Source: Paraspadella gotoi (Eukaryota; Animalia; Chaetognatha). From it: a stretch of 64,000 nucleotides of DNA. A model generated the notes under the pieces. The model was not told the DNA's origin. It worked only from the letters and a program-made list of their open reading frames with translations, and made no database searches. Shown piece by piece: positions 1 through 37,150 of the stretch. Position 1 is the first letter of the stretch. Each line of letters starts with the position of its first letter. A program made the translations under genes and the position numbers. The stretch covers positions 346,148 through 410,147 of the forward strand of contig CM119264.1 of the NCBI GenBank assembly GCA_051294375.1. Direction: 5' to 3'.

Positions 1-469
1 CAAGAAAGAGAAATTAGGTCAAACATTGTTTTGAACATGGCTTTACATGTAATCGCCGAAGCTGAATTAGGTCAAGAAGGTAAAATCGTGAATAATTGAG
101 TTTGTGAGATATTCGAGTCTCTTTAAAGGTAAAAAACGATTTATTTTACGTTTTTAATTTTTTATTTTGTTTTTTATTTTACTAATTTTATTTTTCTTTT
201 CCAGGTCATCGTGGGAGCTCCAATTTCGTCGCGGGATCATCGACATCGCGGGATCACGACATCGTGAGATCATCAGCGTCGCGGGATCAGGTAAGTGTTA
301 CTAACAGGTAAGTATTTGGTTTTCATTTTAATATTTTATTTCAGGACTTAACCTTTTTTTTTACAGGTCACCGACTTCAAGGATCATCGCGAAGGATTGG
401 TCTTCGAGGGATCGCCGTGGGATTTGTCTTCGAGGGATCTCGCAGAGGATCGGGTAAGTATAACATTTT

Positions 470-700: not shown

Positions 701-949
701 CAGCAACCGTACTAGAGTGAGTAACGGTTGAGGCATCGGCCGGTCCTAAGCTATCCGAGACGGACGGCGGGACATGGCGGGACTCTCATCAATTGGAATT
801 CCCTTACAAGAGGTAAAGTATTTTGAATATTTGATATAATTTTTTNNNNNNNNNNNNNNNNNNNNNNNNNTTAAAGGATTTGCCAAGAAAAATTTATGAG
901 TTTGACGTACGCAAACGATTGAGACTTCCGACGTCGGTGTTTCGAGACT

Positions 950-1114
950 CGAGGCCGTCGCTTCGTTGACTGGGGTCGACGTTTCGTTGATTGGGGCCGA
1001 CGTTTCGTTGACTGAGGCCGACATTTCGTTGACTGAGGCCGACGTTTCATTGACTGAGGCCGACGTTTTGTTGATTGGGGCCGACGTTTCGTTGATTGGG
1101 GCCGACGTTTCCAT
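950..1114 (-). repeat. 21-bp tandem repeat encoding the 7-aa NETSASV unit
   Basis: (GGCCGACGTTTCGTTGACTGA)n. Also at about 15590-15715, 21095-21290 and 29600-29785. Confidence 0.9.
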
Positions 1115-1573
1115 TTTTTCTCAATTTGAGAGAGAGAGAAAGAGTTTGTGGAGATATCTATTTTTGACTGAAAGTAGAGGTTAATCACATTTTTAGAAAT
1201 AAGAAGTTTTTGTTTCACAATAGATCAACACAATTTGAGTTATGAGTGAAAATATTTAATGTTTAAAATATCGAATTCCATCCTCAAAGGTGAGAATTGT
1301 TTTTGTCAAGCTGTTGATCTTTTAGGTAGCAACNNNNNNNNNNGTATATATTATAATTTGTATTTTATTTTCAGGAACATACGAAAAAGACTGGGCCGGA
1401 AGGGTTGCTCGGAGGAGGCGGTGGAGGAGGCGGTGGAGGCACTCCTTGAGCCGGTCGCTGACGGTGGTCACGAGGTGAGTTTGGTTATTAAGGCTTAAAC
1501 TGAAATCAAATCATGTATATATAAAAATGTGAATTTCACCAATGATTTATCATCGTTTTTAATGATTCAGAGT

Positions 1574-1873
1574 TCATCGATCTCCGAGGCGATCTTTCAC
1601 TGATGGAAGATGGATTGGTGGATTTCCGGCGGCTGTCCATGGTCCTTGGACGGGTCGAAATTCTTCAGCTTGTCCTCTCCCTTGGGCCAGATGTTCACGT
1701 CGGTCTTCGGGATTGGCTTCGGAGGTTTCCCTTTCCTTCATTGCATCAACTTCCTTTCTTATCCGCTTTAGTTCGTCTGCGATCAGTTCCGAGATTGGCT
1801 GAGAACACATCTCTGCCGCTTGAAATCTAGCACGAGGCGTCGCTTTCTCAAGTTCTTTTTTGGTATTTTCCAT
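1574..1873 (-). CDS. Cassette gene B: 99-aa orphan
   Basis: ORF MENTKKELEK...WTAAGNPPIHLPSVKDRLGDR*. The paralogue at 16485-16910 keeps WTSAGKPPLRLP-IKDRL. Confidence 0.6.
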   Translation of the reverse strand: MENTKKELEKATPRARFQAAEMCSQPISELIADELKRIRKEVDAMKERETSEANPEDRREHLAQGRGQAEEFRPVQGPWTAAGNPPIHLPSVKDRLGDR

Positions 1874-1986
1874 TTTTGTAATTAATTGAAATGTGCCTGC
1901 GTATTTAAAAAAAACCATGAAAGAAAAATATCAATAAAAACGTACGAGTCTATCACACACTCTTTGTCAAATGAATTTATTGTTTT

Positions 1987-2370
1987 TTATTTATTTTTTT
2001 TAATGTAGACGATCCTCGCGTCAGTGGAATTTGGTGCGAGCTCAATCCTTTTGGCACTGGGAGCCCGCCTCAGGTAGTAGGCGCGTAACGAAAGTCCGGT
2101 GGAGAGAGTGCCGAGGAATTTTCTCATCTTTTCCCTCCTTTCTTCTGCCTCGTCCTCTTCCCACCCTGGAGTTGGGTAATAGGTGGCGGCTTTGTCATAG
2201 TATTCCAGTTTCTGTTGGGCAGGTAAGTATTATTTGATAGTTTTATTGTTTATATTATTATTATTTCTTTTTAGGTTTTCGTGAATTGACTTACTTTGGC
2301 CATCTTGATTCGGATTTCGATTCGAGAGTGAAAGTTTTCGAAATGTAACTGAATATCGACTGAACGTGAA
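1987..2370 (-). CDS. Cassette gene C (2 exons), orphan 'KLEYYD-YYPTPGWEED' protein
   Basis: Intron 2212-2294 (GTAAGT...CAG, phase 0). Exon 2 (2211-1987) reads KLEYYDKAATYYPTPGWEEDEAEERREKMRKFLGTLSTGLSLRAYYLRRAPSAKRIELAPNSTDARIVYIKKNK*. Start codon uncertain. Confidence 0.7.
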
Positions 2371-2467: not shown

Positions 2468-2968
2468 TTAAAAGGATCGTTCATGGCATTTTGATTCTTC
2501 GGAGATTTCCATTTGAGTGATCTTTGAGAGAATAGCGCGATCTCTCTTTCCTCTCGAGATCTTTCTCATTTTCTCGCGGGCATTTTCTAGAGCGCGACTC
2601 TCTCTCTCATTTAAAAGTTCATTCCTCATCTCAGCCACTCTTCTTTTCCAGTATTTCATTCTCGCCCTTCTTTTTTCCTCGCGTTTGTGATCGCGAGCGA
2701 TCTCGCGAGCTTTTTCGTGTGCCCATTTCTTTTTAAATTCGACGAGGCATTCCTCCGAAGTCGATTTCATCAGCTTGATCGGCTCGTCTTCAGATTCCGA
2801 CGAGGATGTTTCGTGGCGCCATTTTGAGACTTCGATGATTTCTATGATGTCATCGTCGAGAAACTCCGGAATGGATGGCGGCGAGTTTGGCAGTGAGTTT
2901 GGCGAAGGAAATTCCACCAAAGTTGGCATGTCTTCGTCGATGACTACGATCTCCATCGATTCTTCCAT
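2468..2968 (-). CDS. Cassette gene A: 166-aa orphan, acidic/Pro-Ser N-terminus and K/R/E-rich coiled-coil-like C-terminus
   Basis: Intact ORF MEESMEIVVIDED...SKCHERSF. Noisy copies at about 18774-19290 and 27303-27815. Diverged paralogue in the other arm (17510-17765 minus, 4070-4350 plus) keeps TSEECL, EKAREIA, LLNER.SRAL, REKMRKI and KITQM. Confidence 0.7.
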   Translation of the reverse strand: MEESMEIVVIDEDMPTLVEFPSPNSLPNSPPSIPEFLDDDIIEIIEVSKWRHETSSSESEDEPIKLMKSTSEECLVEFKKKWAHEKAREIARDHKREEKRRARMKYWKRRVAEMRNELLNERESRALENAREKMRKISRGKRDRAILSKITQMEISEESKCHERSF

Positions 2969-4496
2969 TTTGGAATGAGAATTAAACAAGCTGGATATCT
3001 GCAGGTAAGTTGGGTTGAAAACATGTTGAAATTTTCTAATATTTCCTTTACAGAATTTGGACTTCATCGGAACAGGTAAATTTAAAATGTTTGGTTTGTT
3101 TGTATTAATATTTTAATTTTATTATTTTTTATTTTAGGTTCGACGCGACGAGGGATTCGACGCGACGAGGGATTCGACGGCGACGAGGGATTCGACGGCG
3201 GCAAAGAATTCGACTGGACCAAGTGAATTTTTTGTATCTTATTTTTTTTGTGATAATTTACTAATATTTCTCTTTTTTTAGGTTTGGCGACGGCGGCGAG
3301 GGATTCATCGACGGCGGACAAGAAATTCAATTGTTTACTCGATGCGAAAAAATATACCCGCTCGTATTATTATTGCGTGAACTGATTTCCTCGTTTTTCT
3401 TCAGTTTGCGACCGCGGCCGTAGGCGAGGATTGCAATCGACGGCTGGCAAGAAATTCAACAGCGGCAACAAATGAGGGAGAAATTCCAACGGCGGCAAAT
3501 GGGTGACAAGGATTGCATCAATCGGCGTAAAAGGGGATCGGCGGAGACGAACTTCGAAGGTAATCTTTTACGGTTTAATTGGAGACGTTGAGACTACAGA
3601 ATTGATGAAGAGTAAAGTTTTTTCTCTTAGAAGGAGCCGTTGAATTGTGATCGATATCGCAATTTTCGCAAGTAAAATGGACCTATTTCAACTAGCGAGA
3701 CTGCAAACTAAGCAAACACCCTTTGGCAATAGCTATTTTGAATTACTCGATTAGTAATACAATAATTTGCGTAAAATAACTTTCAACAGGAAAACATACT
3801 CGAGCACTCGCGAAAGCAGATACCAAGATTCTTCGATGCACCTTTTATCATATATAAAAACTTCTGAGACCAATTCGAAAGCGAGATAAATTTCGGGAGC
3901 TTTCCGATACGGGCGAAAAAATCGAATTAATTCAAGGACGCGGGTACTAAAATATGAATTTGAAGTTTAAGAGAGAGAATGTCGTTCGTATCAAATAGAG
4001 CGAGAGACACGCGTATAGACTGGCCAAAAAGTCTAATTTAACTTTAAAGATTGGTTGATTTAACTTGTAAATGGCACTTCCGGAGGAAAATGTCGTGTCG
4101 AACATTTCAGAGAAAAAGAAAATAGGGGCGCGACGAAAAAGCGTCGCGAGATTGGGCTCGAGACGCAAAAAATGAGAATGAATCCCGGAAGGAAGATTGG
4201 CAGAAATGAAAGAACGAAACTATTTAAATGAGAAGAGAAAGTCGCGCTCTTAGAGAAAGGCGCGCGAGAAAGATGAAGGAAAGATCACAAGAGGAAAGAG
4301 AAGAGATCGTTAAGCGTTTAACAACTCATCAGGAAAAATAACGTCAAATTGGAAATAAATGGAGAGGAACAAATAAAAACTGTGGTTCAAATCCTCATGT
4401 TTATTAAAAAACCATCATTGATCATTCCTCATTAACATCCAGATGTGCGTTCAGTTGTGNNNNNNNNNNNNNNNNNNNNNNNNNGTTCCTTTCTCC

Positions 4497-4802
4497 ATGT
4501 TCAGTCGATATCTAGATATATTCACGAAATCGCTTAGGCACATCTGCGCCCACATCCTCGAATTCAAGGTGGCCAAAGTAAGTCAATCCACGAAAACCTA
4601 AAAGAAAATAATAATAACAATAAACAGTAAAACCACCAAATAATACTTACCTGCATTACAGAAATTAGAATACTATGACGAGTACGCCGCATACTACCCC
4701 ACTCCGGGGTGGGAGGAGGATGCCGCGGAGGAGAACCGGGAGAGGATGAGAAGGTTCCTCGGAATCCTCTCCACTGGGCGCCCTCTGCGCGCCTACTATT
4801 AG
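4497..4802 (+). CDS. Cassette gene C' (paralogue of C, 2 exons)
   Basis: Exons 4497-4577 and 4662-4802 read MFSRYLDIFTKSLRHICAHILEFKVAK|KLEYYDEYAAYYPTPGWEEDAAEENRERMRRFLGILSTGRPLRAYY. Same intron position and phase as gene C. The C-terminus is uncertain because indels differ between copies. Confidence 0.7.
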
Positions 4803-11529: not shown

Positions 11530-11960
11530 AGGAGTTTAGGGGTTAAGGATTAGGATTTGACGAGGGTTATTTGATTCTGAGGATAGGGATTAGGTTTGTG
11601 ATGTTGAGGATAGGAGTAGGTTAAGTGATTTGTGAAGGGATTGGTAGTGATTAGGGGTTAGGGATTAGGGGATAGAAGTTAATACGTTAGGGGTTAAGTT
11701 AAAAATTTGGTATGTAGAGTTTAGGGTTATAGGCTTGGATACAGATTAGGTAAGGGATTTTAAGGTTAGGGATTAGGGTTTTAGGAATAGTTTAAGGATT
11801 ACGGGATTAAGGTTAGGAAATTGGGTTAGTGATTATGATTAAGGATTAGGGATTATGATTTATAGGATAGGATTCAAGGTTGAGATTAGAATTGGGGATA
11901 GGGTAAAGATTGGGTTATGAATTAAGGTTAGGGAATTGTTAATTGAAATCGGGGTTAAAG
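11530..11960 (+). repeat. Degenerate telomere-like tract (TTAGGG/TTAGG/GATTAGG)
   Basis: Repeated ttaggg, gattaggg and taaggttagg. Interstitial. Confidence 0.8.
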
Positions 11961-14900
11961 TATATTGTAGGTGGGTTGAACTTGAAAATTTTGTATATGG
12001 GGAAGAAAGTGTGTGATTGAAGCAGAAATAGTTCGAGGAATGTCTAGGGTGAGAAATGAGTTTGAAATGGGAAAATAAGCTACTTTACCTGATTTTTTTC
12101 TTTTTTTTGTTTATATTATGATCGATGTAGAATAAATTTTGTATGTAGTAGGAATTGTGTGTGATTTGGGGAAAATAAGTTTTGATGATCGTGCAAGTGG
12201 AAATTGAGTTAAAATTAAAAAAAAATTTAACTATGTCTGATTAAGTTTTTTTCTTTTTATTAAATGTAAATGAGAGCTGTATAATTAATTATTTATATAT
12301 GTAAATTATAATGTTTTGACGCCTCGTGGCGGCGAAGCGTGTCGTTTTCCCGGCGGAATGAAACGTTCAACGTCCGGGAGTCCGGGCGGACGACTGGCGA
12401 TTGAGACGGCAATAAGTAGGGAAAAGTTTTACAACTGATTAAGTGCGAGAAAAGGGGGAAAATAAGGGGACAATTGGTATCCGTTTATATTTTAACTTTA
12501 GCGAATGTTTTAGAGAGAGAAAGAGTTGCCTTAGACGTTAAATCGTTTTTAACACGTTGGGGTTTATTTTTGATTGAATTTATTCTCACGTTTTATATTT
12601 AATCTCGGAAATTAAAGAATTAATTTTACACTCGTTTTTTATGAATACAAACATTTATATTCGTTCCTGTCGCCAAATTGTTTTGTTGATAAATAAACCG
12701 TCGTCAACTGTTGCAAACATGAAAGTTATTTAAATAAGAACTCAAGTCAGCAACGTGATCGAAACTAAGAGGCAAACAAATAAATTATATAATATGATTT
12801 GTAATGTGATTTAATTTATTAATTTAATTTTGTGTTCGAGATTTTAGTTTTGTGATTTAGAGGCGAGACAGAACTTTAAAAGATTTTTGAAAGAATAAAA
12901 AATAATTATAATAATAACTAATTAATTATTTAAATTCTATTAATTAAATTTCTTTACGTGCCTTTGATCGTGGACAGAATTCGGCATTGTTTGTCAACCA
13001 TTGTTTAATTAGTGGTTGAAGGAGTTAAGAAACATTCTGGGTTTTGGAGTGCTTTTAAGAAATTTAGTACTATATAAAATAGAACTTCATAGTTTTGGTA
13101 ACGGTTTTACTGTTTTTCTTCTTTCTTTCTTTTTTTTTCCTTTTTATTTTTATAGTTGTTTGATTTCTGCTTTTTTCGCCTTTTTACGTGCCTTTTTTTT
13201 GCTTTATTTCCTATTATCATAGTGCTCTCTTGTCTCTTCTCTCTTTCTCTTTCGTTTCTCTCTCTCTCTTTCGTGGTGAAAGCAACGATTGCAAGTTTAC
13301 CGCTTCTTTTCCATCCATCAATAGAAGGGAGAGAGGGAGAGAGAGAGTGAGAGAGACGCAGACGAGAGAGAGGTGAGTGAGGCAGAGAGACTAGAGAAGG
13401 AGAGAATAAAAAAGAAGTACGTGTATGCAATGTCAAAAAGCACACGTAATTTTTTTTTCTAATGTAAAAGTTGTGAAGAATGTAAACGGGTAATAGAATG
13501 AAAAGGAATAACATTGGAAGAGAATAAGTTAAAGAAAAAAGGGGAGAACAAGGTTTGAGCAAGCAGTGTCTGCTACGATAATTAGTGGTAATGCACTAAA
13601 TCCGATGATAAATCTAGTAATGTTTGTCTGACTCTATTTGTGATAATAAAATATAAGACTTCTTATAATCTAGAAAAGAAAAAATTATTTATCAATATTA
13701 CCAGTAGCATTGTCTCAGATACTAATTGATAATGGTAAACTTTCATAATGTGGGTCATCTCGCATAATTTGGGGTCAAACAGGCTAATTGGGTGAATTCG
13801 GCATAATATGGTCAAACTGGTAGATTTATATTTCATACTTGCAAAATGTGGTAAATTGCATAATTTGGTCAAGCCATGGGCATTAATTTGGTTAACTGGC
13901 AATTTTGGTCAACTTGTAAAAAATTGGTTTTGGGGTCAAGCTGAAATAATTTGGACAATGGCATAATTTGTTAACTTGGCATATATTGATAATTTGGACA
14001 ATGGCATAATTGGTTACCGTTGCTTATATTGGGTCATTGGTATATTAATTGAGTCAATGGCATAAGATTTTGGTTAACTTGCTTAATTTGGTCAACTGCA
14101 TACATGTTTTGATTTTATGTTTTGTGTGTAATGTGCCTGAAGCCAAGAAAGGGAAATTAGGTCAACATTGTTTTGAACATGGCTTTACATGTAATCGCCG
14201 AAGCTGAATTAGGTCAAGAAGGTAAAATCGTAATTGAAGTTTGTGAGATATTCGAGTCTCTTAAAAGGTAAAAAACGATTTATTTTATCGTTTTTAATTT
14301 TTTATGTTTTACTAATTTTATTTTTCTTTTCCAGTCATCGTGGGAGCTCCAATTAGTCGCGGGATCATCGACATTCGCGGGATCATCGACATGGTGAGAT
14401 CATCGCGTCGCGGGATCAGTAAGTGTTATCTAATGGGTAAGTATTTGTTCATTTTAATATTTATTTCAGACTTAACCTTTTTTTTTTTTACAGTCACGAT
14501 TTAACCGGATAGGTGAGGATTCGTCTTCGAGGGATCGCCGTGGGATTTGTCTTCGAGGGAATCGTCGCAGAGGATCGGGGTAAGTATACATTTTCGTGGA
14601 GATGGTGATCTTCCTGGGAATTCATCTTCATTGAGGAATTTCGCGTTAACGGGGATGATTTGGGTTTACTTTGCGGATCGATTGGCGTTTCATTGCGGGG
14701 GTTTCGGCTTTTTCGGGAGTGGATTTTGCTCATACAGGTAAGATATTGGTAAGTTTTAGTTGAATTTAATGTTTTATCTTTCAGAAATGAATCATCAATG
14801 AGAGGAAGGGGCGCACAACATAATTTTGGTTTTTTTTGAAAATATTGGAATTAATTTGGTAATTTTACCAATGAATATCAGCGAGTAAGAAGAAGATAAT

Positions 14901-16484
14901 AATGAACACTTAAATTGGGGGAGAACGATGATTAGTTACCTAGTGTAGGTGAGAGTCTAGATTAAAAACGGAGAACTTCCGTAGCGATTTTTGAAATAAT
15001 ATTGAGGATAGGAAATACTTTTGTCTCGTGAAAAGTGTTTACATGAATCGATCAATAAATGAAGTTCAGTGAGTGAGTTTTGCGTCGATCTAATACTACA
15101 AAAAAATTTTTATAGAAATGAAACTTAATGTAACGTCCCATACAATATTCGATCTTTCAAATCTTGCGTGCCTCTTCTCGTCTGGCAATGCTCAAGGGTG
15201 TCTTCGTCGGTGCGTTGATGATGGTCGCATAATGAACTCCGAGTAATGGAGTATTTGTTAACACGGATACAGAACTCTTGCGGAAAAATTGGGCCAAAGC
15301 ATCGTGACAAACTCGCCAGTAGGTGTTTCGTCGCAAACGGCTCGAGAATAGGGAGGTCCTGGGCGACGAAATTCCAGGATCTCGTGACCTCGAGAGTGGA
15401 GTAACGGTTGAGGCGATCGGGGTCCTACGCTATCTCGAGATGGACGCGGGGACGTGGCGGGACTTCATCATTGGATATCCCTACAAGAGGTAAGTATTTT
15501 GAAGTATTTAGATTATAATTAAAGGATTTGCCAAAGATTATGAGTTGTAAGTACCAAACGATTGAGACTTCCGACGTCGGTGTTCAATGCCGAGGCAGAC
15601 GTTCTTTGACTGGACCGAGTTTTCGTTGACTGAGGCGACGTTTTGTTGAGTTGACTTTCTGACGAGGTTTCGTTGATTGAGGCCGACACGTTTCGTTGAT
15701 TGGGCCGACGTTTCCATTTTTTTCTCAATTATGAGAAGAGAGAGAGTTTTGTGGAGATATCTATATTTTTGGACTTGAAAGTAAGTTGATAATTTTAGAA
15801 AGAGTTATGATTTTGTTTCACAATAGATCAACACAATTTGAGTTATGAGTGAAATATTTAATGTTTAAAATATGAATCCATCTCAAAGGTGAGAATTTTT
15901 TTTGTCAAGCTGTTGATCTTTAGGTAGCAACGACTTTCTCCTGGGTCTCTGAGATGAGCGGCTCAAAGCTTCGCGTAGATTGCGTGATCTGTAAGGATGG
16001 AGGTCGGGTTGGGCGTGGGTCAGGATCCATTGGATTTTCTGGGGGGTCGGGTGAGGGGGGGTGGGTGGAAGGGTTATTAATATTTAATTTTTATTTAATT
16101 TTTTTTTAGGTGTGGCGGCCGGCGACCGGACGACGACGGAGGGTCAACAAGGAGCGCGAGGGATTCGAACGAGGCGGCGATCGAGGGCGGTAAGTATCAG
16201 GTGAGTATATATTATATTATTTATTTTTATTTTCAGGTACGTATGAAAAAATTGACTGGTTGCACCCGGGAGGTGGTCGGAGGTGGGTGGAGGAGGGCGG
16301 CGGGTGGTGGGGCGCTCTCTTTGCGTATGATGCATCGTCGTTGTTCCATTTGACAGTCGTGCAGGTAAGTGAGGTAAGTTTGGTTATGAGAAAATAAATC
16401 ATGTATAAAAAAAAAAAGGTGTCGATTTCGCCGATGATTTTTGTAATCATTTTTTAAATATCTTAAATGATTATTCTTTTCAGA

Positions 16485-16910
16485 GTTTTATCGCTCTCAC
16501 AAGGCGATCTTTTATAGAGGAAGGCGGAGAGGAGGTTTCCCGGCTGAAGTCCACGTCCTTGGAGGACGGCGAATTCTTTCAGTTTGCTCTTTCCTTCTTG
16601 AGATTTAAATAAACGCGAAGATCTTGATCCTTCTTCACGGATTTTCTTTTATGCCTGGCGGCGTCTACCTCTCTTCGAATTCGTCGCGTCTTGCTTGACC
16701 ATCTCTTTGGGTTAGCGGAATTTTGGAGATCTTTCTGGAGGTAAGTTAATTTTATTTATTTGTATTTTTACCTTTTTATTTAGGTTTTTCTTACGGATTC
16801 ATTGGCGGGAGTTTGGCGAGTAGAAAGGACGAAGGGGTTGCGCAGCGTCGCTGTGTCGTGGAACTTGCTCGGAGTATCGACCTTTTCGAGTTCATTTTCA
16901 CTGGAGGTCC
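16485..16910 (-). CDS. Cassette gene B' (paralogue of B, 2 exons, frameshifted probably by read noise)
   Basis: Minus-strand intron 16735-16794 (GTAAG...CCAG). The C-terminal motif is shared with gene B. Confidence 0.5.
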
Positions 16911-18534
16911 ATCTTTAATTTTATTCTAACTGTACCTGGTACTTTAAAAAACAACAAAAAAAGCTATGAGTCACACAGTCTATCGCGCACCACTTATGTT
17001 CTATACACTAAGTCCGCAAGATTTTTTGTTTATTCGTTATCTATTCTTTTAAAGGGATGATCCTTCACCGGTGGTCTTGAGCGGGGCCTGGTTTCTTCGG
17101 CCCTGGGCGGGCTGCCTCTAGATAGTAGGCGCGAGAGGGCCAGTGGAGAGGATTCCGAGGAACCTTCTCATCATCTCCGGTTCTCCTCCGCGGCATCCTC
17201 CTCCACGACGGAGTGGGGTAGTAGCGGCGTACTCGTCATAGTATTCTAATTATTGTAATGCAGGTAAGTTATTATTTGGTGGTTTTACTGTTTTATTGTT
17301 TATTATTTTTTTTAGGTTTTCGTGGATTGACTTATTTGGCCACCTTGAATTCGAGGATGTGGGCGCAGATGTGCCTAAGCGATTTCTGAATATATCTAGA
17401 TATCGACTGAACATGGAGAAAGGAACAACTGAAACGAGGTAATGAGAATGATAATGATGGTTTTTAAAACATGAGGATTAAACACATTTTTTATTATTCC
17501 TCATTTTTCATTTGAGTTATTTTCGCGGATGGTAACAGAACGTATCTCTTTCCTTGTGATCTTTCTCATTTTCTCGCGAGTCTTTTTAGAGCGCGACTTT
17601 TCTCTCATTTAAAAGTTTGTTTCTTCATTTCTGAATCATCTTCTCGCAGGACTTCATTCTCATTTTGGGCGTTCTCTTCGCGTGCGGTTGGCAATCTCGC
17701 GAGCTTTTTTCGTTTTCGTCGCCGTTTTCTGAATGTCGACCAAGACATTCCTCCGAAGTCATTACAAGTTAAAAAAAGTTAAATTCGAATTTTGGCATCT
17801 CTACAGTTTGCTTATTGATTACGAAATTTTCTAACTCGAATTTTAGTACGCGTCCTTAATTATCTTTTTTCGCATCGAAAGCTCCGAAATTTATTCTTTC
17901 GAATTGTCGAATTTTTTACTATACGAAGCGCATCGCCAAATCGTATCTCTTTCGCGAGTCTCGTTATTTTTCCAATTGAAATTATTTAGCGAATTATTAT
18001 ACAATTCGAGTAATTCAAATACTATTGCATGATACTTAGTTTGCAAGTTCAGAATAGTCCATTTTTACTTGCGAAATTGAATATCGATACATCACGGCTA
18101 AGAGAAAAATTATTTCATATTATTCAACGTAATTAACATAAACAAAGTATTTCCTTCGAAGTCGTCTCGCCGATCCTTTACGCCGATTGAATCCTTCTCG
18201 TCACCCATTTGCCATCAGCGGTTGAATTTCTCCCTATTTGTTGCGCGGGTTGAATTTCTTCTTGTCCGCGTCGATGAAATCCCCTCGCCGCTGTCGCAGA
18301 AGCCTAAAAAAAAGAAGAAATATAGTAAGTTATCAAAAAAAATAAGGATACAAAATTCACGCGTCCAGTGAATTTTTGTCGCCGTCGAATCTCGGTCGCC
18401 GTCAAATCCTCGTCGGTCGAATCCCATAGTCGCGTCGACTAAATAAAAAATAATAAAATTAAAATTTAATTTCAAGAACAACAACATTGTATTAAATCGT
18501 GTTGATGAAGTCCATTCTGTAAAAGGAAATATTA

Positions 18535-18693
18535 ACATGGTGATTAAACTTTCTTTCGATTTGTGTTTTGTAGGTAATTGAAATAAGAGACAAGTCACAC
18601 TGATGAAGCGGCTTGAAATGAAAGGAACTGTCTTGTACATAAAATAAAATGCGTTGGCTGTAATACAAGAGACTTTGTCTTCATTTTTCAATT
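18535..18693 (+). mobile_element. 159-bp insertion with a hammerhead-like motif (Penelope pLTR/retrozyme-like)
   Basis: Flanked by direct repeat AGGAAATATTA (18524-18534 and 18694-18704), with a single empty site in copy 1 (3037-3047). Contains CTGATGA at 18600, then GGCTT-GAAAT-AAG, then GAAC/GATAC-TGTC, then AATAAA, and terminal stem AGACAAGTC/GACTTTGTCT. Second copy at 27058-27218. Confidence 0.5.
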
Positions 18694-21091
18694 AGGAAAT
18701 ATTAGAAAATTTCACATGTTTCAACCCCAACTTTACTGCAGATTATCCAGCTTGTTTAATTCTCATTTCACAAATGGAAGAATCGATGGAGGATGTAGTT
18801 CATCGACGAAGACATGCATACGTTTGGTGGAATTTCATTTCTGCCAAACCATCGCCAAACTCGCCGCATCCATTCCGGTGAGTTTCTTGAGCAGATGACA
18901 TATAGAAAATACATGAAGTCTGCAGAATGGCGCCTACGAAACATCCGGTCGTCGGAATCGAAGACGGAGCCGATGCAAGCTTGAATGAATCGACATTCGG
19001 AGGATGCTCGTCGAATTTAGAAAGAAATAGGGCAGCACGAAAAAGCTCGCGAGAAAAGTCGCTCGGCGATACAAAACGCGAAGAAAAAAGAAGGAGCGAG
19101 AATGAGAATTTGGAAAAGAGGAGTGGCTGAGATGAGAATTGCATTTTAAGATGAGAGAGAGAGTGCGACTCTAGAAAAATGCGACGCGGAAGATGAGAAA
19201 GATTCGAGAGGAAAGGAGAGATCGGCGCTATTCTCATCAAGCGCTAAATGTGGAATCTTCCAAGATATAAATGCCATGAACGTTCTTTTTGAACTCTAAC
19301 TTCAACTTACCATTTTTATAGTTTTGTTCATTTAGATGATTGATGATTATTATTAAGATGTTGGTCTTCTAGCAAAAAAATAGATGATTTGTTCTTTATT
19401 TTGATACTTAACTTTAACATTCAGGTCGTATTCAGTATACATTTCGAAAACTTTCAACATCTCGAGGAATATGAATCAGGAGATCAGAGATAGGCACAAG
19501 TAAGGTCATTTGCAGGAAAGACCTGAGAAGCATAATATTAATAATATATCAAGTAATAAAACTAACAATAATACTTACCTGCAGCCAACAGTCTAACTGG
19601 AAGTATGCAAGCCGCACTAGTTACGCAAGAGCATCCAGGTGGATAGATTAGGACTCATCCCGGGCGAGCGATGGCAGAAGAAAGGCGGGAATAAGATGAG
19701 AGAAATTTGCCATCAGGCAAACTGCGTCTCACCGGTATTCGTAATATACGCTGCACTACTACGCCTGGAGGCGGGTCCCAAGTGCGCACAAGGATTGGAG
19801 CTGACACACAATTCCACTGATGACGCGGGATGCGTCTCGATTAAAAAAAATAACATAAAAGAACAGAGAGTAAGTTGATTTTGACAAGGAGGAGTGTGAT
19901 GATCAAGGACTCCGTCCAGTTGTTGTTTGATATTTTTTCTTATGGTTTTTTTTAAATACGCAGTAGCACTTTCGAATTAGTTGACAAAATGAAAATATCT
20001 AAAACGAACTTGAAGAAGCGAGCTCAGTGTAAGATTCAACGCGGACAGAGATGTGTGTCGTCGAGCCATCTCGGAACTATTGCGAAGGACGACTAAAGCG
20101 AATAAGAAGGGCGAAAAAGTGAGGAAAGAGAGCAATCCCGTAAGCAACAGCCAAGGAAACGCTGAATTTGGCCATCCCAAAGATGACGAGCGTGAAGATT
20201 TGGCACCAGGATTGCAACTGAGACTCGATCCTGGACCGGCAAGCGCCAAATACAACCATCCATCTTCAACAGTGAAAGGATGCTGAGGTGGAGATCGGAA
20301 TGACTCTGATATCTAAAAGCGAGATAAATATGTGGTAAATCAATTTTTATTATACATGATTTGAATTTCAGTTAAAGCCTTAATACAAACTCACTCTCGT
20401 GACCACCGTCAAATGACCAAGTAGCAGACCGCTCAGGAGTGCCTCACCGATAGCTCTCACACGCCTCCTCGAGCCAAACCCTTCCGGCTCAGTCTTTTTC
20501 GTATGTTTCTGAAAATAAATACAGAATTATATATATACATAACTGCCAACGCTGACTACGTTCAGCCGTGTGCCGGCGTCGTCGATGCACTTCATGTTGT
20601 CACGGTCGTCGAAATCCGCTCGATGGCGTCACGTCCGAATCCTCGTGGCGTGTCGAATACTCGACGCCGGTCGTCATCTCATCCGTGGCAATCTTGTCGC
20701 CGCCTGCACTAAAAAAAAAAAATAATTAAAACTTAAAATTAATAACCTTCACCACCCCTCACCGACCCCCCAGAAAAATCAAATGGATCCTGACCCACGC
20801 CAACCCGACCTCCATCTTACCAATCGGCAATCTTTCGGAAGTCTTTGGGCGGCCAATCTCAGAGACCAGGAGAAAGTCGTTGCTACCTAAAGATCAACAG
20901 CTTGACAAAAACAATCTCACTTTGAGGATGGAATTCTATTTTAAACATTAAATATTTCACTCATAACTCAAATTGTGTTGATCTAATTGATAGAACGAAA
21001 ACTTCTAACTTGTTCTAAAATGTGATTACCTCTACTATTACAGTCAAAAATGATATTCAAAACTCTTTCTCTCTCTTCAAATTGAGATAAA

Positions 21092-21808
21092 ATGGAACAG
21101 TCGGCCCAATGGAACGAAACGGTGCGCCCGCAATCACGAAACGTTCGGCCTCAGTCAATGAAACGTCGGCCTCAGTCAGCAAAATGTGCCTCAGTCAATC
21201 GAAAGTCGGCCAATCAACAAAATGTCGGGCCTCAGTCAACGAAAGCGTCGGCCCCATCAACGGAGCGTCGACAGCAGTCAACGAAGCGACGGCTCGGAGT
21301 GCTCGAAACGCGAGTCGGAAGTCTTCATCGTTGCGNNNNNNNNNNNNNNNNNNNNNNNNNTACGTCAAACTCATAAATTTTTCTTGGCAAATCCTTTAAA
21401 AATTATATCTAAATACTTCAAAATACTTACCTCTTGTAGGGAATTCCAATGATGAGAGTCCCGCCACGTCCCCGCGTCCAGTCTCGAGATAGCGTAGGAC
21501 CCCGATCGCCTCAACCGTTACTCCACTCTCGAGGTCACGAGATCCTTGGAATTCGTCGCCCAGGACCTCCCTATTCTCGAGCCGTTTGCGACGAAACCAC
21601 CTACTGGCGAGTTGGTCACGATGCTTTGGCCCAATTTTTCGGCGAAGAGTTCTGGATCCGTGTAAACAATACTCCATTACTCGGAGTTCATTATCGCGAC
21701 CATCATCAACGCACCGACAAAGACACCCTTGAGCATTGGCGCCACGAGGAAGAGGTCATCGCAAGATTGGAAAGATCGAATATTGATTTTTGGGACGGTT
21801 ACATGTAA
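21092..21808 (+). CDS. Cassette gene D (2 exons): N-terminal (NETSASV/NETSAPI)n repeats plus a ~120-aa orphan domain
   Basis: Exon 1 is cleanest at 1114-911 (minus) as METSAPINETS...EVSIVC. Donor GTACGT (seen at 29826). Acceptor TTGTAG ends at 21439, and exon 2 at 21440-21808 is in frame: GIPMMRVPPRPR...FWDGYM*. Further copies at 15125-15717 (-), 23580-24172 (-) and 29595-30290 (+). Confidence 0.6.
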
Positions 21809-22597
21809 ATGTTTGCATTTCTAAGAAAATTTTTTTTGTAGTATTAGATCGACGGCGAAAACTCACGTCCAACTTTCATTTATTGATTCATTCATAAAAC
21901 ACTTTTCACGGAGACAGAAAGTTTCCTATCCTCAATATTATTTTCAAAAAATTGCTACGGAAGTTCTCCGTTTTTAATTCATAGACTCACCTACACCTAG
22001 GTGAACTAATCATCGTTCTCCCCCAATTTAAGTGTCATTAGTTATTTCTTCTTTCTATTACTCGTGTTATGTCATTGGTAAATTGTACCAAATAATTCCG
22101 AATATTTTCAAAAAACACAAAAATTATGTTTGCGCCCCGTTCTCTCTCATTGATGATTCATTTCTGAAAGATAAAACATTAAAAATTCAACAAAAACTTA
22201 CCAAATACTTACCTGATGAAGCGAAGATCCAATCCCGCGAAGTGAAGATGGGGAAGATCCATCCCGCGAAGTGAAGACGCCGAAGATCCATCCCGCAAAG
22301 TGAAGACGCCGAAGATCCATCCCGCGAAGTGAAGACGCCGAAGATCCATCCCGCGAAGTGAAGAAGCCGAAGATCCATCCCACGAAATGTATACTTACCC
22401 GATCCTCTGCGACGATCCCTCGAAGACAAATCCCACGGCGATCCCTCGAAGACCAATCCTTCGCGATGATCCGTTGCTTATATTGGGTCATTGGTATATT
22501 AATTGAGTCAATGGCATAAGATTTTGGTTAACTTGCTTAATTTGGTCAACTGCATACATGTTTTGATTTTATGTTTTGTGTGTAAAGTATGCCTGAA

Positions 22598-25500
22598 GCA
22601 AGAAAGGGAAATTAGGTCAACATTGTTTTGAATCATGGCTTTTAACATGTAATCGCCGAAGCTGATTCGGATCAAGAAGGGTAAATCGGTAATGCTGAGT
22701 TTTGTAGGTATTCGAGTCTCTTAAACGGTAAAAAGATTTATTTTACGTTTTTAAATTTTTGTATTTTTGTTTTATTTACATTTTATTTTTAGCTTTTCCA
22801 GTCATCGTGGGGAGCTCCAAATGTTCGCGGGGATCACGACATTCGCGGGATCATCGATCATGGTAGAGATCATTCAGCGTCGCGGGATCAGTAGCTGTTA
22901 TTAAGCAGGTAAGTATTTGGTTTTCATTTAATATTTATTTCAGACTTAACCTTTTTTTTTTTACAGTCAAACGATTTAATCAAGGATATCGGTGAAAGGA
23001 TTTGGCTCTTCGAGGGATCGCCGTGGGATTTTGTCTACGAGGGAATCGTCGCAGAGGATGGGCGTAAGTATCATTTTCGGGGATCGGCGGTCTTCCCGGG
23101 ATTACATCTTCATTGCAGATGGTAACTGGGATGTGGGTTATGTGGATGGGATTGCGTTCACGGGCGGCTCGAGTGGTATTTCTTCGTAAGTTTGAAGTTT
23201 TAGTGAATTAGTTTTATCTTTCAGAAATAAGAATCATCAATGAGAGGAAGGGGCGCAAAACATGAATTTTTTTTTTTTTGAAAAGATATTGGAATTATTT
23301 GGTGACAATTTTACCAATGAAAAGCGAGTAAAGAAAGAAGATAAAACTGAACCGACTTAAATTGGGGTGGAGTAACGATGATTAGATTACCTAGTGTAGG
23401 TAGGTCGTACGATTAAAAACGGAGAACTTCTGTAGCGATTTTGAAATAATATTGAGGATAGAAAGACTTTTCGTCTGTGAAAAGTTGTTTTCATGAATCG
23501 AATCAAGTAAATGAAAGCGAAGTGAGTTTTTGCGTGATTAATCACTAATAAAAATTTTGTTTTAGAAATGCGAAACATTGAATGTAACGTCCCATACAAT
23601 ATTGTCTTTCAATCTTGCGTAACTCTTTCCTCGTTGGCGCAACTGGTCAAGGGTGTCTTGTGGTGCGTTGATCGATGGTCGATAATGAACTCCGAGAATG
23701 GGTAATGTTTAACACGGATTAAGAATTTGCGCGAAAATTGGGCCAAAGTCATCGTGACACTGACCAGTAGGTGGTGTTCGTCGCAAAGGTCGAGATAGGG
23801 AGGTCGGGACGAATTCCAGGATCCTCGTGACTGCGAGTGGAGTACGGTTGAGGCGATCGGGTCACTATTATCCGAGACTGGACGCGGGACGATGGGGGAC
23901 TCTCATCATCATGTGATATCTACAAGAGGTGTATTTTGAAGTATTTAGATTATATTGTAAGGATTTGCAGAATAATTAATGAGTTGAGACGACGCAAACG
24001 ATTGAGATTGACCGAGTGGTGTCAATGCCGTACGGCAGTCACGTTGGGGCGTTCGGACTGAGGACCGATTCTTTCGTTGACTAGAGGCGACGTTCTTGAC
24101 TGAGGCCACGTTAGATTCTAGCGACACAATTTGTATTGGGTGCGACGTTCGTTGATTGGGCGACTTTACATTTTTCTCAATTTTGAGAGAGCAGAGAGAT
24201 TTTGAGGAGATTCTACTTTTTTGTGACTGAAAGTAAGTTGATATCAATTTTAGAAAAGTTAGATTTTCGGTTTCAAAATAGCATAAACAATTTAGTTATA
24301 GTGAAAATTTAATGTTTAAAATGATCATTCCATCTCAAAGGGATGAGAATTTTTTGTCAAGTGTTGATCTTAGGGTAGCAAGACTTTCTCCTTGGGTCTC
24401 TGTAGATGAGCGGCTCCAAAGTTCGTCAGATGCGTGATCTGGTAAGAATTAGGAGGTCGGGGTTGGGGTGGGAGGATCATTGGATTTTTGGGGGTCGGGT
24501 GAGGGGGGGTGGTGAGAAGGGTTATTAAATATTTCATTTTTAATTTAAATTTTTTTTTTAGGTGTGGCGGCCCACCGGACGGACGGAGGGTTCAACAAGG
24601 AGCGCGAGGGATTCGAACGATGGCGGCGATCAGGGCGGTGTATAGGTGAGTAGTATAGATTTATCATGTGATTTATTTTTATTTTCAGGTACGTAAGAAG
24701 AAAATTGTCAAGCGGTATTCACCGGGGAGGTGGTCGGAGGTGGGTGGAGGAGGTTTGGCGGCGGGTGGGGTGGGGCGCTCTACTTTGCGTATGATGCATC
24801 AGTCGTTGTTCATTTGACAGTCGTGCGAGGTAAGTGAGGTAAGTTTGGTTAGGAAAATAAATCATGTATAAAAAAAAAAAAGGTGTCGATTAGTCGCCGG
24901 AGTGATTTTTGTAATACATTTTTTAAAATATCTAAATGAGATTGATTCTTTTTCAGGAGTTTTATCAGCTCTCACAAGGCGATCTTTTATAGAGGAAGGC
25001 GGAGAGGAGGGTTCCCGGCTTGAAGTCCACAGGTCCTTGAACGGCCGATATTCTTTCAGTTTGCTCTTTACTTCTTTGAGATTTAAATAAACGCGAAGAT
25101 CTTGATCCTTCTTACGGATTTTCTTTTATGCCTTGGCGGCGTAATACCTCTCTCAATTGTCGCTGACATTCTCCTGGTAGCGGAATTTTGAATCTTCTGG
25201 AGGTAAAGTAATTTTATTTATTTGGTATTTTTACCTTTTTATTTAGGTTTTTCTTAGGATTCATTGGGCGGGAGTTTGACGAGTAAAGGACGAAGGGGTA
25301 TGCGAGCGTCGCTGGTCGTTGGAACTTGCTCGGAGTAATCGACTTTTCGAAGTTCATTTTCACTGGAGGTCCATCTTTAATTTTATTTAGCTGGTACCTG
25401 GTCTTTAAAAAACGAACGAAATAAAAGTATGAGTCACACAGTCTATCGCGCACACATTATGTCTATACACTAAGTCGAAGATTTTTTGTTTATCGTTACT

Positions 25501-28500
25501 ATTCTTTTAAAGGGAGATCCTTCGCCGGTTCTTCCGTTAGCGGGCCTGGTTTCTTTTTTCAGGCCCTGGGCGGGCTGCTTGATGAGTAGGCGCGAGAGGG
25601 CACAGTGGAGAGGATTCCGAGGAAGCCTTCTCATCATCTCCGGGTTCTCCTCCGCGGCATCCCCTCCACGACGGAGTGGGGTTAGTATGCGGCGTACTCG
25701 TCATAAGTATTCAATTATTGTAATGCAGGTAGTTATTATTTGGTGGTTTTACTGTTTATTGTTTATTTCACTTTTTTTTTTAGGTTTTCCGTGGATTAGA
25801 CTTACTTTGGAACCTTTGAATATCGAGGATGTGGGCAATGTGCCTTAAGCGATTCTTCATGATAGTATCTAAGATATCGACTGAACATAGGAGAAAGAGA
25901 ACACATGAAACGATAGGTACATGAGAATGATGCAATGATGGTTTTTAAAAAACATGAGAATAACAACCTTTTTTATTATTCCTCATTTATTTCATTTGAG
26001 GTTATTTTCGCGGGATGAGTAACAGAAGATATCTCTTTCCTTTGTGATCATTATCTCTTTTACTCGCGAAGTCTTTTTAGAGGCGGCGGACTTTTCTCTC
26101 ATTTTAAAGTTTGTTTCTTCTTTCTGACATCTTCTCGCAGGACTTTCATTCTCATTTTGGCGTTTCTCCTTCGCGCTGCGGTTAGAGCAATCTGCGGCTT
26201 TTTTCGTTTCGTGCGCCGTTTTCTTTGAAATCGACCAAGACATTCTCGAGAGTCATTACAATTAAAAAAAGTTAAATTCGAAATTTGGCATCTCTACAGT
26301 ATTCTTATTGATTACGCGAATTTTCTAAACTCGAATTAGTAGTACGCGTCCTTAATTATCTTTTTTGCTTCGAGCCTCCGAAAATTTATTCTTTGAATTG
26401 TCGAATTTTTTACTTAGAAGCGCATCGCCAAAAACTCGTATTCTTCGCGGCTCGTTATTTTCCATATTGAAAAATTATTTAGCGAATTATTATACAATTC
26501 GAGTAATTCAACATATATGCATTGAATACGTAGTTTTTGCAAGTTCAAAGTAGTCCATTTTTACTTGCCGAAATTTTCGAATATCGATACGCATGACGGT
26601 CTAAGAGAGAAAAATATTTCATTTAATTCAATCGTAATATAAACATAAACAAATATTTACCTTCGAAGTCGTCTCGCGATCCCTTTACAGCGCCGATTGA
26701 ATCCTTCTCGTCACCTCATTGGCCTAGCGTTTGAATTTCTCCCTATTTGTTGCCGGGCCTGGTGAAGTTTCTTTTGTCCGTGTCGAATGAAATCACCCTC
26801 GCTCGCCTGTCGCAGACCTAAAAGAAAGAAGAAATATAGTAAGTTATCAAAAAAAATAAGATACAAAATTCACTGCTGTCCAGTAAATTCTTTGTACGCC
26901 GTCGAAGTCCTCGGTCGCCGTCAACCTCGTCGGTGAATCCTGTCGCGGTCGAACTAAAATAAAAATAATAAAATTAACTATATTAATTACAGAACAACAA
27001 CATATTGTATTTAAATCCTGCTTCGATGAAAGTCCAATTCTGTAAAGGATAATATTAACATTGTGATTAAACTTTTCTTTCGATTGTGTTTTGAGGTAAT
27101 TGAAAGAAGGAGACAAGTCACTGATGAAGCGGCTTGAAATGAAGCGATACTTGTCTTGTACCAATAAAATGAAAATCGTTGCTGGTAAACAAGAGACTTT
27201 TGTCTTCATTGTTCAATTAGGAAATATTAGAAAATTTCAATCATGTTTCAACCCCGCAACTTTATGCAGATATCCAGCTTTGTTTAATTCTCATTCAACA
27301 AATGGAGAATCGATGGAGATCGTAGTCATCGACGAAGACAATGCCATACTTTGGTGGAATTTCATTTCTCGCAAACCATCGCCAAACTCGCCGCAATCCA
27401 TTCGTGAGTGTTCTCGAGCAGATGACATCATAGAAATACTGAAGTCTCAAAATGGCGGCCACGAAACATCCTCGTCGGAATCGAAGACGGAGCCGATGCA
27501 GCTTGATGAATCGATCATTCGGAAGGATGCTCGGTCGAATTTAGAAAGAAATAGGGCACGAAGACAAGCTCGCGAGAAAGTCGCTCGGCGAATCACAAAA
27601 CGCGAAGAAAAAAGAAGGGCGAGAAATGGAGAAATTGGAAAAGAAGAGTGGACTGAGATGAGAATGATGTTTTAAATGAGAGAGGAGAGTCGCGCTCTAG
27701 AAAAATGCGAGCGAAGATAGAAAGAGTCTCGAGCAGAAAGAGAGATCGGCGGCTATTCTATACGTCAAGACCCAAATGGAGAATCTCCAAGATAAAATGC
27801 CATGAACGTATCTTTTTGAACTCTAACTTCAACTTACCATTTTCTTAGTTTTTGTTCATTTGAATTATGGATTATTTTAAGATGTGTCTTCTACAAAAAT
27901 AATGTTTCGTTCTTTATTTTGGAGTACTTACTTTCACATTCAGGTCGCATATTCAGTATACATTTCAAAACCTTTCAACATCTCGAGAATGAATCCGAAT
28001 CAGAGTGGCAAAGTAAGTATATTCTAGTGGAAAGACTAAAAGCAAATATATAATATATAAGTAAGCATAGAAGTACTAGTACATAATACTTACCTGCCAA
28101 CAGTCCATAAGGAAGTATACAAAGGCACTAGTGAACGCAAGGCCCAGTGATAGATAGGGTACATCAGGGGGAGCTATGGCAGAAGAGAAGGAGGGAATAA
28201 GATGAGAGAAATTTGCCTCAGGCACTCGTCTCCACCGGTACTTTCGTAAGTATTCGCTGCCTACTACGACCTGGAGGCGGGATCCCAAGTGCGCACAAAG
28301 GATTGGAGCTGCACAATTCAGCTGACGACGAGGATCGTCTCATTAAAGAAAAAAATAACATAAAAGAAAGGAGGTAAGTTCATTATGAGAACATGTGAGT
28401 TGTGATAAAGGACTCCGTCCAGTTGTTGTATTGATATTTTGTTTTCATGGTTTTTTTTAAATCGCAGTAAGCACTTTCAATTAGATTGACAAAATGAAAA

Positions 28501-31209
28501 TATCTGCAAAACGAACTTGAGAAAGCGATCGCTCAGTGCTAGATTCAACGCGGGACAGAGATGTGGGTTGTCTCGAGCCAATCTCGGAACTATGCGAAGG
28601 ACGACTAAAGCGATAAGAATAGGGCGATGAAGCAAGGAGGAAGTGAGAAACTGCAAGCACAGCAAGCGAAACCTGAATCTGGCATCCAAAGATGACGTAG
28701 GCGTGAACATCTGCCCAAAGGTTACAAGCGAAGATTCGATCTGGACAGACAAGCCGCCGAAATACCACCAATCCATCTTCAACAGTGAAAGGATGCTAGT
28801 GAGATCGTAATGAACTCTGATTATCTTAAAGGAGATAATCATGTGGTGAAATGTCAATTTTTATATTACATGAATTTGAATTTCAGTTTAAGCCTTAATA
28901 CCAAACTCCTCGTGATGAACGTCAAATGACGAATCACGCGACCGTCAAGGAGTGCCTCCACCGTCCTCCACCGCCTCCTCCGAGCAAACCCTTCGGCCAG
29001 TCTTTTTCGTATGTTCTGAAATAAATACCAAATTATATATATACATATCACCTGATACTTCAGCCGTGTCGCCGGTCGTCGATCACTTGTCTCTCAGGTC
29101 GCTCAAAATCCGTCGTCGACCGTCGTCGAATCCCTCGTGCGCGTGTCGAATCTCGCGCCGGTCGTCAATCCCTCATCCGTGGTCAATCCTTGTCGCCGCC
29201 GCACTAAAAAAAAAAAATAATTAAAAAAACTTAAAATTAATAACCTTCACCACCCCCTCACCGACCCCCCAGAAAATCCAATGGACTTGCACACGCCAAC
29301 CCGACCTCCATCTTACCAATCGGCAATCTTTCGGAAGCTTTTGGGCGGCCACATCTCAGAGACCAGGAGAAAGTCGTTCTACCTAAAGATCAACAGCTTG
29401 ACAAAAAATTATCTCACTTTGAGGATGGAATTCTATATTTAAACATTAAATATTTTCACTCATAACTCAAATTGTGTTGAATCTAATTGATAGAACGAAA
29501 ATTCTAAACTTGTTTCTAAAAATGTGATTAACCTCTACTATTCAGTCAAAAATAGATATTCCACAAACTCTTTCTCTCTCTCTCAATTGAGAAAATGGAA
29601 CAGTCGGCCCCAATTGAACGAAACGTCGGCCCGAATCACGAAACGTCGGCCTCAGTCAATGAAACGTCGGCCTCAGTCAGCAAAATGTCTCAGTCAACGA
29701 AGTCGCCATCAACAAAATGTCGGCCTCAGTCAACGAAACGTCGGCCCCATCAACGAGCGTCGACCCAGTCAACGAAGCGACGGCCTCGAGTCTCGAAACC
29801 GACGTCGGAAGTCTCAATCGTTTGCGTACGTCAAACTCATAAATTTTTCTTGGCAATCCTTTAAAAATTATATCTAAATACTTCAAAATACTTACTCTTT
29901 GTAGGGAATTACCATGATGAGAGTCCCGCCATGTCCCGCGTCCAGTCTCGAGATAGCGTAGGACCCGATCGCCTCAACCGTTACTCCACTCTCGAGGGTC
30001 ACGGAGATCTCGAATTCGTCACCAATCAGGACTCCTATTCTCGGAGCCTGTTATGCCCGACAAAAGAACCCACGTAACGGCAATTGGTCACGATGCTGTT
30101 GGCCCAATTTTCGAGGCGAAGAGTTTCTGGAACCGTGTGTAGACATACTCCATTACTTTGGAAGTTCATTATCGCGACCGATTCAAACGCAACCGAGAAA
30201 GATACCCTTGAGCATTGGCGCCACGAGAAGAGGTAAACCGCAAGATTGGAAAGATCGAAATTTGATGATTTTGGAACGGTTACATGTAAGATGTTTCCAT
30301 TTCTAAAAAAAATTGTCTTTGTAAGTATTAGATGACGCGGGGAAAACATCACAGTCAGAACTTATCAATTTTTGATTGCGTTCATTAGAGACACTTTTAA
30401 ACGGAGGAAGTTTCCTATCCTACATTAATTATTTTCAAAAAATCGCTACGGAAGTTCTCCGTTTTTATTCATTAGACTTCTCACATGACACTAGGTGAAC
30501 TAAATCATTCGTCTCGCCCAATTTAATGTCGTTAGTTTATTTCTTCTTTTCTATTGCTCGCGATTTATGTCATCTGGTAAATTGTACCAAAGTAATTCTA
30601 ATATTTTCAAAAACGCACAAAATTAATGTTTTTGCGCGCCCGTGTCTCTCTCATTGATGATTCATTATCATGAAAGATAAAACATTAAAAATTCACAAAA
30701 ACTTCAACATATATACTGATGAGGGAAGATCAATCCGCGAAGTGAAGACGCGGAAGATCCATCCGTGAGTGAAGGACGCGAGATCCGATCCGCAAAAGTG
30801 AAAGCGTGCGAAGATCATCCGCGAAGTTGAAGAGCGCGAAGATCCATCCGGAAAGGGAGCCGAAGTCATCGGAAGATGCAGACGCCGAAGATACCATCCG
30901 GGTGACGGAATGACTCACGAGTCGCCGAAGATTCACCGCGCAAGCTCGAAGAAGCGGAAGTCCATACCGCAAAATGTAATACTTACTGCGATACTCTGCG
31001 ACAATCCCTCGAAGAAAACAGTAGACCACGGCGAGCCTCGAAGACGCAAATACCTCGCGTATGACTCTTTGAGTGGTGCTGTAAAAAAAAAGGTGTAAGT
31101 CTGAAATAATATTAAAATGAGAAAACAAGTACTTACCTGTTTAGATAACACTTACGCTGATGCCACCGCCGACGCTGATGATCTACGATGTCGATGATCC
31201 TGCGATGTG
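22598..31209. mobile_element. Palindromic multigene cassette, copy 3 (tandem direct repeat of copy 2, noisier)
   Basis: Colinear with 14150-22470 throughout, e.g. 16110~24562, 17055~25512, 18600~27121, 21092~29595. Confidence 0.75.
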
Positions 31210-34425: not shown

Positions 34426-34429
34426 TACA

Positions 34430-36862: not shown

Positions 36863-36864
36863 TA

Positions 36865-37150
36865 GCAAGTTAACCAAATTATGCCAGTTGTCCAAATTAT
36901 GCCAATAAGCAAGTTAACCAAATTATGCCAGTTGTCCAAATTATTTCAGTTGACCACATTTTACAAGTTGACCAAATTATGCCAGTTAACCAAATTATGC
37001 CAGTTGACCAAATTATGTCAGTTGACCACATTTTGCAAGTTGAAAAAAATCTACCAGTTGACCATATTATGCCAATTCACCAAATTATGCCTGTTGACCA
37101 AATTATGCGAGATGACCACATTATGAAAGTTGACCTAATTATGCAAGTTA
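36865..37150 (+). repeat. 18-bp minisatellite (GTTGACCAAATTATGCCA)n
   Basis: Direct reading. Also at 33890-34420 (+), and inverted at 13740-14100 and 22475-22555. Confidence 0.9.

Follow-up and report, generated by a model that had tools for sequence, protein, structure and literature searches.

Introduction

The Drosophila telomeric retroelements HeT-A and TART both give rise to spliced antisense RNAs, that of HeT-A being described as non-coding and as containing several introns (PMC2615633; PMC1636488). In the sections cited, these RNAs have been linked to small-RNA silencing (PMC2615633). Natural antisense transcripts of fungi and nematodes likewise contain GT-AG introns that overlap annotated genes, as predicted for the cluster analysed here, but the examples given in these sources are scattered single cases (PMC3739942, PMC3778014, PMC4994411). 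The Ustilago antisense introns described as coinciding with sense introns are CU/AC complements and not independent nested GT-AG introns, while the nematode cases presented are whole genes lying inside long introns.

Here we analyse a duplicated cluster of small, animal-type genes in 64,000 nucleotides of Paraspadella gotoi DNA (the window), where short introns on one strand enclose intron-shaped stretches on the other. Our literature search on nested opposite-strand introns and on spliced antisense RNA of mobile elements returned no description of this arrangement; subscription papers fell mostly outside the search, and supplements (e.g., the splice-site table of PMC3778014) may hold cases.

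Results

Layout of the cluster

The window is eukaryotic: its 55-61 kb stretch holds frames of the EGF, ankyrin and XK-related kinds. The host gene or genes at 56598-60466 (plus strand) match ankyrin and EGF weakly and contain an XK-related domain (E 6e-15); the XK-related frame has no relative among the longer proteins searched. The cluster consists of small head-to-tail frames, disposed in two paralogous arms, X and Y, that form a quasi-palindrome (Table 1). The assembly is rough and contains 25-N gaps, the usual mark of long-read gap filling. Aligning 14017-22351 with 22471-30849 gives 552 mismatches and 604 gap openings, a pattern from which we infer that both stretches are raw long reads derived from a single locus. 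The window holds six arm renderings that truly represent two diverged versions, most copies being noisy long-read renderings. By eye, 41200-44450 also looks like a noisy copy of the host region (55200-57000), a further sign of gap-fill duplication. Degenerate telomere-like TTAGG(G) arrays lie at 11536-11880 and 38964-39301, some 2 kb off the cassette ends. More small head-to-tail frames, with no evident sense introns, occupy 34400-36450 (minus strand) and continue from the arm end at 36449-36866; antisense donors are found among them at 35171 and 36128. These frames indicate that the cluster is longer than the palindrome.

Table 1. Predicted genes, introns and repeat units of the cluster, in window coordinates.
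Feature	Position	Strand	Remark
Antisense intron candidate outside sense genes	308..344	+	Donor 11/11; alternative acceptor near 366
Antisense intron candidate	1475..1570	+	Ends 4 nt from gene B stop
Gene B, about 96 codons, intronless	1574..1864	-	Reading frame
T-rich sense intron candidate upstream of gene B	1897..1945	-	No nested partner; may be TATA region
Gene C exon 2, about 74 codons, protein-coding	1987..2211	-	Substitutions 7/7/23 by codon position
Gene C sense intron, 83 nt, phase 0, A-rich	2212..2294	-	One AATAAA and an in-frame stop inside
Nested antisense intron in C, 52 nt, T-rich	2223..2274	+	Donor 11/11 to U1 complement
Gene C exon 1, coding part (ATG GCC AAA)	2295..2303	-	Donor directly after
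Gene E, 166 codons, intronless	2468..2968	-	Acidic-hydrophobic stretches, then basic, charged region
Antisense intron candidate upstream of gene E	3005..3053	+	Branch-like YTRAY near acceptor
Antisense intron candidate outside sense genes	3076..3137	+	Splice signals
Antisense intron candidate outside sense genes	3224..3281	+	Branch-like YTRAY near acceptor
C' exon 1, ATG and 26 codons, in frame with exon 2	4497..4577	+	Reading frame
C' sense intron, 84 nt	4578..4661	+	Retention gives in-frame stop
Nested antisense intron in C', 53 nt	4598..4650	-	Donor 11/11
Quasi-palindromic unit, arms Y then inverted X	14017..22460	.	Outer part alike within read noise, inner part diverged
B' sense intron, 60 nt	16735..16794	-	Retention gives in-frame stop
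Nested antisense intron in B', 43 nt	16741..16783	+	Donor 8/11
Gene D sense intron	21361..21439	+	First base in N gap; weaker support
Nested antisense intron in D, 37 nt (35-37)	21394..21430	-	Donor 10/11, AAG acceptor
Gene D exon 2, 122 codons	21440..21808	+	Reading frame
Second noisy rendering of the 14017-22460 unit	22471..31208	.	Probably an assembly duplicate

Homology searches recovered no relatives of gene C, gene E or gene D exon 2, and gene B gave neither a family match nor an exact record. Exact look-ups (0/4) and PHROGs (0/8) were equally negative for the cluster proteins, whose relatives were also absent from the viral contigs and phages searched, with no match to a viral family. 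The lone match of D exon 2, to the 725-aa repeat protein P0001 (E 7.8e-4), was judged to be due to chance; its SGNH-like matches, at 0.75-0.82, lie inside the range of shuffled proteins. Predicted folds were poor (pLDDT 41 for D exon 2 and 57 for C exon 2) and unfit for fold search. Two hydrophobic-acidic stretches in gene E resemble SUMO-interacting motifs. Gene D exon 1 (911-1114, minus strand) is made of a 21-base repeat coding for repeated N-x-T sequons.

The cluster was also compared with known element classes. No Pfam match to gag or reverse transcriptase, the frames expected of a HeT-A/TART-type telomeric retroelement, was obtained among 11 + 89 selected frames, which were taken from outside the noisy rendering at 22471-31208 and the 41-54 kb frames. 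The proteins that would mark a Polinton/Maverick or an endogenous DNA virus (DNA polymerase, integrase, capsid or packaging ATPase) were absent from the frames scanned, and the cluster may extend past the readable sequence. Penelope-like and Terminon elements are distinguished by hammerhead ribozymes in flanking repeats and by a reverse transcriptase. This class was set aside, Rfam having revealed no ribozyme and the scanned frames no reverse transcriptase: the window gave 0 Rfam matches at gathering score, and 4 weak miRNA-like microsatellite ones in 11000-22500.

Nested introns on opposite strands

A preliminary description of this DNA had reported four sense introns, each enclosing a canonical intron on the opposite strand. 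All four pairs sit where it placed them, with GT..AG on both strands in every case: each sense intron (60-84 bases) surrounds a shorter opposite-strand stretch with the shape of an intron. With 46 substitutions and one gap between them over 227 bases, genes C and C' are true paralogues; counting them once leaves three independent nested cases (C/C', B' and D). The further claim that every definable sense intron encloses such a partner holds for the four introns inside reading frames (4/4) but not for the T-rich minus-strand candidate at 1897-1945, which has no partner. This candidate forms, with another at 1942-2008 (plus strand), a back-to-back opposite-strand pair spanning 1897-2008, the two donors sharing the palindrome CGTACG. 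Sense introns had also been called A-rich; this holds for C, C' and B' (52-58% A) but not for D (37% A, 38% T). As proposed, the complement of the antisense donor is the main source of the sense pyrimidine tract, 10-11 of the final 15 bases being pyrimidines.

The likelihood of such nesting by chance was estimated from 5000 dinucleotide shuffles per sense intron, using criteria fixed after seeing the data. With the interior shuffled, a nested antisense intron arose at frequencies of 0.026 (C), 0.027 (C'), 0.026 (B') and 0.007 (D). When the last 22 bases were held fixed, an antisense acceptor appeared in 17-57% of shuffles. So high a rate with a fixed 3' end suggests that the signal consists of a strong donor combined with a reversed base composition, and not of the acceptor alone. 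None of eight candidate host introns (hand-picked, 56-61 kb) contained a nested antisense intron. We also considered that removal of the antisense intron alone might mend the sense frame; this was rejected, the leftovers (31, 31, 17 and 43 bases) being in no case divisible by three.

Sequence evidence for sense splicing

The reading frames of C, C' and B' need sense splicing, retention of the intron producing an in-frame stop. Purifying selection acts on gene C exon 2 (pS 0.82, pN 0.12), the 7/7/23 distribution of substitutions being that of 46 codons compared between C and C'. Its first methionine is codon 29, and the preceding 28 codons show 11 synonymous versus 6 amino-acid-changing differences. 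Constraint in this segment implies that the start must come joined from upstream. In B', splicing puts an upstream block and a gene-B-like block in one frame; the downstream block alone scored when B' and B were compared by blastp (E 6e-5), and the paralogue B has no intron on either strand at the corresponding site. Gene D is the weaker case, an in-frame join of 68 to 122 codons having a one-in-three chance, and its inner intron is the weakest of the four; the copy of the D intron at 29826-29904 is whole, with its GT visible. At 17.2 and 25.7 kb, where C' is rendered again, the G of the sense acceptor is missing both times, so that sense splicing may have been lost at this locus.

In C, C' and B' alike, the first in-frame stop met on retention is formed by the complement of the antisense acceptor, with an AATAAA after it. 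This combination hints that the gaps in these genes began as, or might still act as, spacers between reading frames. A more far-reaching account would confine cis-splicing to the antisense strand and make the sense gaps operon-like spacers, each with a poly(A) signal and a trans-splice acceptor, the downstream frame being opened by a spliced leader. Flatworms have such a leader, its last bases being AUG, and all three sense junctions are in phase 0. Nematode operon spacers are described as measuring 50-200 nt and containing Ur elements (10.1101/642082). We find this account improbable: the sense donor and the in-frame codons upstream of it are identical in C and C', and the first exon of C' runs in frame for 27 codons.

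Conservation of the C and C' introns

The introns of C and C' are identical at 73/83 aligned bases, while synonymous sites in the exons are 82% diverged. Differences avoid the splice signals: 0/30 bases differ in the four signals as opposed to 10/53 elsewhere (p about 0.01 by hand, with zones picked post hoc). This conservation may be enhanced, or even fully explained, by gene conversion between the arms, and faster change at GC-rich third positions is a conceivable alternative account of the contrast between intron and exon.

The same data bear on whether the antisense signals are relics or by-products, left by an old antisense unit or by AT-rich sequence spread through gene conversion, with a noisy assembly inflating their number. 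The similarity of the outer arm parts to within read noise would fit, as would the gap-dominated differences between units 14017-22460 and 22471-31208 and the presence of 25-N gaps. Nonetheless, the status of C and C' as true paralogues and the sparing of the four signals from substitution both speak against relics, and read noise cannot make strand-locked 11/11 donors. On balance this explanation seems quite unlikely.

A protein overlapping C on the antisense strand was also considered. The antisense frame that shares the wobble position of C contains several stops in both C and C', and the longest ATG frame in a hand-spliced antisense model reaches 78 aa; an overlapping antisense protein was thus dismissed. 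Pairing between the sense donor and the ACTTAC motif is weak, amounting to only about -2.3 kcal/mol in the C and C' folds and absent in B'.

Antisense splice signals along the arms

Donors were scored against the U1 complement. Those matching at least 9/11 positions are almost all antisense, the antisense:sense counts in the six arm renderings being 7:0, 1:0, 9:0, 4:0, 5:0 and 3:1. Local shuffles produce a mean of 0.3-0.4 such donors and at most 3. Antisense donors in C, C' and B' score 8-11/11, versus 6-7/11 for the sense donors. T-rich short introns are called on the antisense strand in 25/25 instances across three cassette regions, with some calls sharing an acceptor and with the caller's demand for T-richness making it blind to A-rich sense introns. 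The strand of the calls flips at the palindrome centre, and shuffles yield about 0.25 calls per region. The poly(A) signal has the opposite bias (AATAAA sense:antisense 11:2 and 13:3). The stops of B, B', C and D each have an antisense acceptor some 20 bases away at most. A crude rule finds antisense introns at 5/13 and 5/16 AT-rich gaps and none on the sense strand; in the host region it finds 1 and 2 in 28 gaps. These figures do not support the notion that all AT-rich gaps are antisense introns, many gaps being used but not all. No T-rich tract closely follows the donors at 454, 2373 and 2453. The 1475-1570 candidate and its paralogue at 16374-16483 have preserved ends and an altered interior.

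Some putative antisense exons (229-289, 475-645, 3139-3214, 22222-22386) derive from tandem repeats of 17, 18 or 27-29 bases, a make-up found in some long non-coding RNAs. Within 2976-3423 (plus strand), the candidate introns starting at 3005, 3076 and 3224 seem, when removed by hand, to leave an open frame some 90 codons long, whose ATG lies a few bases from the opposite-strand ATG of gene E; the scripted model has a maximum of 78 aa. Given the GC-rich repeats, this frame is likely to be fortuitous.

Could sense splicing alone account for these signals? The ACTTAC-pyrimidine segment would then be a branch point, a pyrimidine tract or a U1 mimic of the sense intron, the A-rich segments poly(A) regions, and the antisense introns mirror images. 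ACTTAC does fit the loose branch consensus yUnAy and precedes the sense AG by 6-11 nt in the nested cases; AATAAA occurs in the introns of C, C' and B' and also in spacers; and an antisense acceptor easily arises by chance. The difficulty is that equally strong antisense donors have no sense AG within 25 nt (291, 16190, 16201, 16365, 16374), that antisense introns with a branch-like motif and a T tract lie outside sense genes, and that the match of the antisense donor reaches positions +7/+8. We therefore regard sense-only splicing as unlikely.

Another explanation would make the nested pairs copies of one small mobile element, spliceable in either orientation. A gapped pattern common to C, C' and B' occurs 3 times in the window and in 0 of 100 shuffles, having been drawn from these very sites, and gene B lacks both introns. 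Introners that function in either orientation have been described (10.1101/2020.10.14.339549). However, the pattern is found nowhere else in the window and has 0 matches in metagenome contigs, and gene D is laid out otherwise. An introner is likewise disfavoured: no target-site duplication is seen by eye, and there is no clean presence/absence, B and B' differing beyond the intron. A mobile intron is accordingly highly improbable.

Most candidate antisense introns lie in spacers without any intron on the sense strand, which makes the nested pairs look like a single instance of a transcript-wide pattern of antisense splicing. The preliminary description had viewed the short spacers as maintained for splicing in both directions. 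The part of this view that stands is the keeping of signals on both strands of the C and C' introns, which is compatible with such maintenance; its framing appears too narrow.

Discussion

The reading that we favour, with a probability of roughly 60%, is that each arm is covered by a multi-exon non-coding antisense RNA whose introns fall only in non-coding gaps, and that the sense intron borrows the complement of the antisense donor. Judging from the distribution of signals, a long non-coding antisense RNA would be transcribed across the whole cluster and spliced wherever the DNA carries no codons. It would begin near the arm ends and read inwards, presumably protected by its strong U1 sites and by the scarcity of poly(A) signals, while the sense genes would be short units rich in such signals. 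Antisense introns would be found in spacers and sense introns because they cannot occupy codons. Where the two share a gap, the antisense intron may set base composition and polarity, leaving the sense intron as the weaker partner, for which the complement of the antisense donor could serve as branch point and pyrimidine tract. By analogy with what has been proposed for HeT-A/TART antisense RNA, the predicted antisense RNA would probably serve to silence or time the genes of the cluster itself.

A stronger proposal, which we advance only tentatively and consider doubtful, is that the pairs are true two-way introns: spacers of 60-84 bases spliced from both strands and selected as such since synonymous sites became saturated. 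The antisense donor would then provide the branch point and pyrimidine tract of the sense intron and also mimic U1 exactly, so that it could pair with the sense donor; the antisense acceptor would supply the stop of unspliced sense RNA, and the intronic poly(A) signal would act as a switch coupling the two transcripts. If both strands are spliced, four splice sites, two opposite transcripts and single motifs with two jobs are packed into 60-84 bases, and the nested pairs become a small, testable reporter of strand choice in splicing. There would also be a warning for annotation in that the better-looking intron at such loci is on the non-coding strand.

Returning to a multi-exon antisense RNA over each arm, several systems invite comparison. 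In varicella-zoster virus, the latency transcript VLT is a spliced antisense RNA over a protein gene (ORF61) in a compact array (PMC5862956). VZV is a herpesvirus, whereas the cluster has no viral family match, and as far as the VLT account cited goes, the likeness is in antisense splicing. The introner-like elements of Polarella and Aureococcus resemble the nested pairs in that one short sequence carries splice signals on both strands; there, each insertion is described as mobile, with a target-site duplication, and makes an intron in a host gene (10.1101/2020.10.14.339549). Unlike these elements, the cluster would use both strands at one locus, and it gives no sign of mobility. The closest known parallel is HeT-A/TART: these too are repeated, and their non-coding antisense RNA has several introns whose splice sites fit the consensus well, a likeness that applies here at the level of sequence. 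They differ in that their sense template transcripts are usually unspliced, the sections cited describing no nested opposite-strand introns (PMC2615633), and in that our cluster has no gag or reverse transcriptase in the frames scanned and its antisense RNA is a prediction. With HeT-A/TART the cluster would nevertheless share one puzzle on which it bears, namely why the non-coding antisense RNA of repeats should retain its introns, a feature that has been called enigmatic (PMC2615633).
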